A stretch of DNA of 1,304 bases, taken from assembly GCA_000004985.1 (NCBI GenBank), contig GG739450.1; one strand, given 5' to 3'. The DNA is from Naegleria gruberi. Taxonomy: Eukaryota. A model generated the notes under the pieces. It was not told the origin of the DNA. It saw only the letters and a list, made by a program, of their open reading frames with translations, and made no database searches. Positions 1 to 1,012 of the stretch are shown one piece after another (the first letter of the stretch is position 1; each line of letters starts with the position of its first letter). The position numbers were made by a program, and so were the translations under genes.

Positions 1-966
1 CAACAAGAAATATTTTCAGATGATGTTTGTTTTGAAATAATTTCCATGCTCGATGATTCGTGGTTTATTTTGAATAATTGTTCCTTGATTTCAAAACAAT
101 TCTTTAATGTGATCAAGGAACGTTCAAAACTTGTTATTCAATTTAAACAAAAATTTACAGAGAAACGAGTTGAATTATTCATGAAAAGTCAGTTTAGGAA
201 TAGAATTATTAATCTTAAAGTTTTTAGATATTTGCTTGACTCTTTTGAAAAACTCAAATTCATTAGTGATATGAAACGATTAACGTCACTTGATATTTCT
301 TTCAATCAAATTGGTGTACAAGGGGTCAAATTCATTAGTGGAATGAAACAATTAACATCACTTGATATTTCTTTCAATCAAGCTAGTGATGAAGGTGCTA
401 AATACATAAGTGAAATGAAACAATTAACATCACTTGGTATATCTAAGAATCTAATTGGTGATGAAGGAGCTAAATATATTAGTGAAATGAAACAATTAAC
501 ATCACTTAATTTATATTACAATGAAATTTGCGATGAAGGAGCTAAATATATTAGTGAAATGGAGCAATTGACATCACTTGATATTTCTTCTAATCTAATT
601 GATGTAGAGGGAGTCAAATTCATTAAGGAAATGAAACAATTAACATCACTTAATATATATTACAATGGAATTGGTGTAGAAGGAGCCAAATACATAAGCG
701 AAATGAAACAACTAACATCACTTAATATTACTAACAATGAAATTGGTGATGAAGGAGCTAAATACATTAGTGAAATGAAACAATTAATATCACTTATTAT
801 ATCTAGGAATCAAATTGGTGATGAAGGTGCTAAGTACATTTGTGAAATGGAGCAATTGACATCACTTAACATTTCTGGCAATGAAATTGGTGATGAAGGA
901 GCCAAATACATTAGTGATATGAAACAACTAACATCACTTGATATTTCTTTTCAATCAAGTTGGTGA
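1..966 (+). CDS. F-box-like / leucine-rich-repeat protein (RI/GALA-like 24-aa LRRs). Probably 5'-partial, and the 3' end is truncated by a frameshift as sequenced.
   Basis: Frame 1 has no stop from base 1 to the TGA at 964-966. The first in-window ATG is at 46, as in the ORF track. Translated, residues 1-40 read 'QQEIFSDDVCFEIISMLDDSWFILNNCSLISKQFFNVI'. By eye this fits an F-box-like consensus of the form LPxEILxxIFSxLDxxDLLxxxLVCKxW. From about residue 75 onward there are ten 24-aa repeats, 'MKQLTSLDISFNQIGDEGAKYISE', with the LxxLxLxxNxIGxxGAxxL spacing typical of RI-type and GALA-type LRRs. Codon usage is consistently AT-rich at third positions. The domain call comes from visual motif matching, not from an HMM search. 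Confidence 0.78.
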   Translation, partial: QQEIFSDDVCFEIISMLDDSWFILNNCSLISKQFFNVIKERSKLVIQFKQKFTEKRVELFMKSQFRNRIINLKVFRYLLDSFEKLKFISDMKRLTSLDISFNQIGVQGVKFISGMKQLTSLDISFNQASDEGAKYISEMKQLTSLGISKNLIGDEGAKYISEMKQLTSLNLYYNEICDEGAKYISEMEQLTSLDISSNLIDVEGVKFIKEMKQLTSLNIYYNGIGVEGAKYISEMKQLTSLNITNNEIGDEGAKYISEMKQLISLIISRNQIGDEGAKYICEMEQLTSLNISGNEIGDEGAKYISDMKQLTSLDISFQSSW

Positions 967-1012
967 TGAAGGTGCTAAATACATTAGTGAAATGACACCA
1001 CTAGGAAAATAA
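253..1012 (+). repeat. Tandem 72-bp direct repeat array of about 10.3 units, in frame, encoding the 24-aa LRR units.
   Basis: Units begin with 'atgaaacaattaacatcactt' at 271, 343, 415, 487, 559, 631, 703, 775, 847 and 919. A degenerate final partial unit starts at 992. Spacing is exactly 72 nt, except that the last full unit is 73 nt because of an extra T. Many units share exact blocks, for example 'ggtgatgaaggagctaaatacattagtgaaatgaaacaattaacatcactt'. Confidence 0.95.
953..1012 (+). pseudogene. Frameshifted C-terminal remnant of the LRR gene. It lies in the +1 frame relative to 46..966 and encodes 'NQVGDEGAKYISEMTPLGK*'.
   Basis: After the T4 run at 948-951 (T3 in every other unit), the sequence 'caagttggtgatgaaggtgctaaatacattagtgaaatgaca' continues the repeat almost exactly, but out of frame with the annotated CDS. 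Read in the shifted frame it gives another canonical half-unit and ends at TAA 1010-1012, exactly where the DNA repeat degenerates. Confidence 0.6.

Follow-up and report, generated by a model that had tools for sequence, protein, structure and literature searches.

The question raised by this locus of Naegleria gruberi is why an LRR coding sequence should stop within its tenth repeat unit while the nucleotides beyond the stop carry on the same repeat in another reading frame, and whether the one surplus T that separates the two frames is a real and recent mutation or an error of sequencing or assembly. The window, i.e. the whole stretch of 1,304 nucleotides that was analysed, was studied for its reading frames, its repeat register, the predicted structure of its product and the ends of related genes. 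Overall, what is found is an ordinary one-base change in a short T-run at the far end of a repeat gene.

On the plus strand, frame 1 is free of stop codons over bases 1-963 and continues past the 5' edge of the window, so that 321 codons are visible, the listed ORF (46-966) being the ATG-bounded portion of this open frame. Its translation, its Pfam matches and its N. gruberi relatives identify bases 1-963 as an F-box-like plus LRR coding sequence. The Pfam profile LRR_6 (PF13516) matched seven stretches of the translation (E 2.3e-56; 183.9 bits, the cut-off being 23.4), and LRR_8 (E 6.5e-28) and LRR_4 likewise exceeded their cut-offs, placing the protein in the LRR superfamily. The N-terminal segment (residues 7-40, DDVCFEIISMLDDSWFILNNCSLISKQFFNVIKE; bases 19-120 of the plus strand) is F-box-like, the profile PF12937 matching it weakly and below threshold (E 0.063, 13.5 bits, with a cut-off of 24.3 bits). 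On the N-terminus of the N. gruberi paralogue P0001 the F-box-like profile gave no match; the F-box-like motif is conserved across Naegleria paralogues.

The best database relatives of the window protein are N. gruberi predicted proteins, which make up nine of the ten top matches (best 10 of 759). P0001 is 74% identical to the window protein over 222 aa, and an identical 44-residue stretch is common to P0001 and the N-terminus encoded in the window. The first 60 residues, encoded by bases 1-180, agree with residues 36-95 of P0001 at 58 of 60 positions, and the linker and the repeat array are far more different, a mosaic pattern suggesting that the 5' part was exchanged between paralogues by gene conversion or duplicated among them only very recently. 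Together with four further N. gruberi paralogues (P0003, P0006, P0007 and P0009), P0001 resembles the window gene in its F-box-like N-terminus and its 24-residue unit (...KYISEMKQLTSLxIxxNxIGDEGA); like the window gene, these paralogues end mid-repeat without a conserved C-terminal cap. They differ in having 5-6 units, against 10 in the window gene, and they are known here from protein models, whereas the out-of-frame continuation of the window gene is visible in its DNA. The exact window protein is absent from the protein collection searched, and an exact-product look-up of the window ORF returned nothing on record, as did those of P0001 and P0002; the literature yielded the definition of GALA-LRRs and nothing specific to this Naegleria F-box-like/LRR family. 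The window holds the 3' part of a gene from a large Naegleria family whose F-box-like proteins carry GALA-type LRRs of 24 residues; the gene is a previously unlisted member of that known family, presumably an unannotated paralogue.

The LRR array extends from 256 to 995 on the plus strand and comprises ten full 72-nt (24-residue) GALA-type units followed by 19 nt of an eleventh, as delimited with Tandem Repeats Finder (TRF), a unit table and MAFFT. TRF reports a single array with these limits (period 72, 10.3 copies, 80% matches). When cut in register, all ten units consist of 24 codons each and have the array consensus KYISEMKQLTSLNISYNQIGDEGA, the pairwise identity among array units being 72-92% (52-66 of 72 positions). 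The units are less uniform than the initial annotation had it, in which DISFNQIG was attributed to every unit other than the tenth: gat att tct ttc aat caa (DISFNQ) occurs in units 1 and 2 only, and the corresponding residues of the other seven full units are GISKNL, NLYYNE, DISSNL, NIYYNG, NITNNE, IISRNQ and NISGNE. The exact string IGDEGA is found in four of the nine in-frame units, with Gly at position 9 in 10 of 10 units and Ala at position 10 in 8 of 10. Variation among the units (window 256-975) is clustered at repeat positions 23, 1, 2, 4 and 6-8, around the beta-strand and loop; the variable x positions are occupied by D/N/G/I, S/Y/T, F/K/Y/S/N/R/G and Q/L/E/G, and hardly any change is seen in the helix or the L/I/N scaffold. 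Variability of this kind is the usual pattern of a variable LRR binding face.

The GALA/GL class of CC-LRRs has been defined as a 24-residue repeat with apolar residues at positions 5, 10, 13, 19, 22 and 24, Asn at position 3, I-G-D at positions 5-7, Gly or Ala at position 9 and Ala at position 10, GALA proper being without the conserved apolar Leu at position 16 and having a 'GAxALA' helix motif (Kajava et al. 2008, PMC2244805). The window repeats fit both the 24-residue length (TRF period of 72 nt) and the position pattern, Asn 3 included, as does their consensus N-Q-I-G-D-E-G-A-K-Y-I-S-E-M-K-Q-L-T-S-L-N-I. Position 16 is Met in 10 of 10 units, and the helix reads GAKYIS or GVKFIS. Because of this conserved Met 16, which is GL-like, and of GAKYIS in place of GAxALA, the repeats are GALA-like and not strict GALA. 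The closest solved structures by sequence are 9j7j, a 'GALA protein' (RipG4 LRR, E 9.1e-65), and 4xa9 (LegL1, E 6.1e-27), and the same two were again the top two in a Foldseek search with the AF2 model (E 1.4e-14, TM 0.66). The Ralstonia RipG/GALA effectors and Legionella LegL1 are like the window protein in their 24-residue repeat and in the placement of an N-terminal F-box-type domain, putative in the window protein. Unlike the secreted bacterial GALA effectors, the window protein is eukaryotic (heterolobosean), and its F-box match is sub-threshold.

Within this array, unit 10 departs from the repeat register by one base. At 940-969 it reads gat att tct ttt caa tca agt tgg tga tga, with a run of four T's at 948-951 on the plus strand that has one base extra relative to the register; three T's stand at the equivalent place in units 1 and 2 (300-302 and 372-374). 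An unsupervised MAFFT alignment of the 11 raw units opened a gap of a single column in each of the nine other full units, and this gap falls inside the T-run of unit 10. Downstream of the run, frame 1 meets TGA TGA (964-969, plus strand), a pair of stops that arises when the conserved att GGT GAT GAa is entered one base too soon, and the frame-1 protein ends ...DISFQSSW. The shifted-frame TGA pair, in the string TGG-TGA-TGA, is present in most array units. The four-T run and the truncated end described in the initial annotation are thus borne out by the sequence, the translation and the MAFFT gap column.

Beyond the shift, the repeat continues in frame 2 of the plus strand from 953 to 1012 (NQVGDEGAKYISEMTPLGK followed by TAA), a segment that is presumed to be the ancestral C-terminus and encodes the last predicted alpha-helix; around the shift, frame 2 reads ...LIFLFNQVGDEGAKYISEMTPLGK*, with TAA at 1010-1012. 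The repaired protein would end ...GAKYISEMTPLGK, against ...DISFQSSW in frame 1. In the window the repaired ORF has 336 codons versus 321, so that 15 residues are lost and four more are changed (NQVG to QSSW), rather than the loss of about 20 residues first estimated. Deletion of one T brings unit 10 to 66 of 72 identical positions against the consensus, which ties it for the best score, and to 66 of 72 against unit 2. The 44 nt past the shift contain two differences from the consensus, compared with 1-11 (median 5) in the nine in-frame equivalents, which makes the out-of-frame segment the second lowest in divergence of ten equivalent segments. Both changes in the tail are harmless, ATT to GTT replacing Ile with Val and GGA to GGT being synonymous. 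The out-of-frame tail is without decay, and the match of the unit 10 tail to the array is far above chance. The evidence lies in the identity; the open frame by itself has no significance, since shuffling this AT-rich stretch leaves 19 codons free of stops in about 19% of cases. It had been proposed that the shifted frame keeps the repeat down to a stop at 1012, and this holds, with frame 2 open to the TAA. It had also been stated that the TAA lies exactly where the repeat stops, and here the position of the TAA stands and the coincidence does not: repeat similarity stops at about 995, the unique codons T-P-L-G-K follow, and the TAA comes 15 nt further on.

The state of this tail bears on the age of the shift. 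The argument that out-of-frame sequence would not stay preserved for long agrees with the undecayed tail, but it is weakened because gene conversion can homogenise tandem units and near-identical paralogues. The frameshift might then be old, its tail having been kept pristine-looking by gene conversion or unequal crossing-over among tandem units and near-identical paralogues. We consider this improbable. The unit most similar to unit 10 is unit 2, far from it in the array, hinting at non-adjacent exchange among units that are 72-92% identical; the near-identical N-termini (58/60) and differing arrays of the window gene and P0001 form a mosaic compatible with conversion between paralogues; and P0001 ends in ...NW in the same phase. 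A conversion tract covering the tail would, however, usually erase the adjacent extra T too, and the unique TPLGK-TAA tail is without a donor and yet still open.

The ends of related genes were read as DNA for four Naegleria-like relatives from environmental and Logan assemblies (L001-L004, encoding P0010, P0005, P0016 and P0019). All four end in frame, and like the repaired ORF they close with a last helix and a brief unique tail; an out-of-frame repeat continuation past the stop was found in none of the four. These ends support position 1012 as the probable ancestral stop, in agreement with the initial annotation, in which related copies were expected to end at the equivalent of this position. 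Together with the two differences in 44 nt of the tail, they also support its view that the extra T is either a very recent frameshift or a homopolymer error. L001 and L004 come from one metagenome sample (ENA ERZ929261), and the family genes on them adjoin genes for a gelsolin, a fatty-acid hydroxylase and an amino-acid transporter. With eukaryote-type neighbours beside family genes on both, a Naegleria-like amoeba was in all likelihood present in that sample.

A homopolymer error, whether in sequencing or assembly, would mean that the true gene has TTT and ends at 1012. Such an error predicts that the 44 nt downstream should match the consensus as well as the best in-frame units do, and this is what is seen; moreover, the difference is a change in homopolymer length, and the repaired end agrees with those of all four relatives read as DNA. 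The four-T run is also uncorroborated, the locus having been found neither in the protein collection nor in contigs of viruses, prokaryotic genomes or metagenomes: none of these contigs contains an exact 30-mer taken from the unique tail, and a protein-guided locus search gave 120 pattern matches in metagenome contigs and 57 in genome contigs, 0 of which were confirmed. On the other hand, a step from three to four T's is short for a homopolymer error, and the ORF contains seven further homopolymer runs of 4-5 bases, all in frame. Counted along the visible ORF, the shift (about nt 948 of 1009) falls within the final 6%, where a frameshift that selection tolerates is to be expected, and this late position would favour a tolerated real mutation, given that errors scattered at random would hit that part in only about 6% of cases. 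With similar clipped or shifted tails among annotated paralogues also speaking against it, an artefact is a possible explanation that we hold only tentatively.

Eight of 19 annotated N. gruberi paralogues, judged from protein models only, end within a repeat. The tail of P0032, ...GEWNGIHLWNETVDQTFVFHE (WNGIHLWNETVDQTFVFHE), matches shifted-frame translations of the array, with 0 of 200 shuffles as good, and so does that of P0002, ...ITIVLVMKEPSS, with 1 of 200 shuffles as good. The end of P0001, ...LTSLDIGDNPNW (DIGDNPNW), lies in the same phase of the repeat as ...LTSLDISFQSSW and can be aligned with it position by position, and it would fit the insertion of one base in aat-caa-att-ggt-ga. 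These tails are automated gene models at the protein level and may themselves stem from assembly errors or mis-modelled introns; accordingly read with that limit, those of P0001, P0002 and P0032 suggest either recurrent real frameshifts or systematic gene-model or assembly problems in the family. A frameshift-clipped C-terminus would seem to be normal for the Naegleria F-box-like/LRR family, and the truncated form in the window to lie within its range.

The predicted effect on the protein is confined to its end. In the AF2 model of the repaired fragment, block pLDDT is 83-95 over residues 131-330 and low in the N-terminal 80 residues. The model ends in a strand (312-320) and a helix (322-329), with a pLDDT of 84-88 over residues 311-330 and of 60 over the last six residues. 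The extra T, which lies at repeat position 2 of unit 10, replaces N318-Q-V-G321 with QSSW and cuts off residues 322-336. According to the model, the lost part would be exactly the last predicted helix (322-329), and the last beta-strand would be kept, minus the conserved Asn, leaving the nine other repeats and the N-terminal domain unaffected. Stop codons abound in both shifted frames of the array: when 1-nt insertions were simulated throughout it, translation ran on for 4.9 codons on average (maximum 24) before a stop, and for 8.1 codons (maximum 27) when the simulated change was a 1-nt deletion. Because the shifted frames are so rich in stops, early truncation is a generic outcome in this array.

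In its visible part, the gene does not have the appearance of a decayed pseudogene, having a single frameshift, 321 open codons and an undiverged tail. Among the labels initially offered, 'incipient pseudogene' is the weakest; the frameshift that it refers to stands, but 321 or more codons are intact, the last helix alone is lost, and close paralogues routinely end mid-repeat. An LRR effector of Acidovorax avenae is reportedly, by the title of a paper (PMC5209373), a frameshift-generated C-terminal variant, and in this likeness, drawn from the title alone, one frameshift likewise alters the C-terminus of an LRR gene.

The reading preferred here is that the extra T is real and recent, and that it gives a slightly shortened, putatively still functional protein, not a dead gene; we hold it with about even confidence. 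All three of its parts are inferred, namely the reality of the T (as opposed to a miscalled base), its recent origin and the continued function of the protein. The ancestral frame would have ended at the TAA at 1010-1012, past the tenth repeat's helix and the five unique residues that follow it. One T would then have been gained in the TTT run at repeat position 2 of unit 10, the simplest route being replication slippage. The ribosome would now read the conserved ATT-GGT-GAT-GAA one base early and meet TGG-TGA-TGA, whereby QSSW would take the place of the conserved Asn and the three residues after it, and the protein would lose its final 15 residues, those of the predicted terminal helix. The product would be another ragged C-terminus in a fast-turnover repeat family. 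At the level of sequence, such a real recent mutation and a sequencing error would be inseparable, and a miscall would explain the same facts equally well.

The frame-1 stop could also be thought to be bypassed in translation, by an antizyme-like programmed +1 ribosomal frameshift at UGG-UGA-U that would yield a full-length product, ...DISFQSSW-DEGAKYISEMTPLGK, with decoding resumed at GAU-GAA-GGU. Skipping the U of the UGA at 964 does restore the LRR frame as far as the TAA at 1012. However, TGG-TGA-TGA follows trivially from the conserved IGDE codons and is present, in the same shifted frame, in most array units, no Rfam element was found, and the repeat's conserved Asn would be lost, so that a programmed shift is scarcely credible. 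A recoding RNA structure 3' of the frame-1 stop was rejected, the segment 964-1063 having a fold z of -0.54 and no stimulatory structure. It is just as hard to believe that the four-T or three-T run and UGG-UGA-U together make up a recoding or slippage-driven on/off switch of the terminal helix; if they did, one gene would give LRR proteins with and without the C-terminal helix, and P0001, with its end ...NPNW, would be a second case.

The change matters little beyond the locus, being at most one more example of LRR-family turnover in free-living amoebae, where arrays are lengthened and clipped by slippage and any indel truncates the frame within a few codons (mean 5-8). Its practical value is that of an annotation flag on the C-terminus: if the four-T run is an error, the protein ends at 1012.

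The non-repeat 3' flank (1013-1304) has a GC content of 0.35, versus 0.30 in the array, and contains no recognisable gene or RNA; an Rfam search matched no family, and the minus strand has short ORFs only. On the plus strand, a frame-1 ORF of 79 codons (1063-1302), with a GTG start and an internal ATG at 1123, overlaps a frame-3 ORF. The search with its 79-aa product gave no word-sharing homologue candidates, HMMER with frame 1 of 1150-1302 gave two weak multi-stretch matches (E 2e-4 and 4e-4) that are not credible, and this ORF is probably not a gene. The frame-3 ORF, also on the plus strand, begins with the ATG at 1182 (MLETFDEFFQHQVFERKSTLFKIKYNIQKEIANPKVHYNMK...) and runs past the 3' end of the window at 1304; by its position, about 170 nt past the TAA of the LRR gene, it may mark where the next gene begins.
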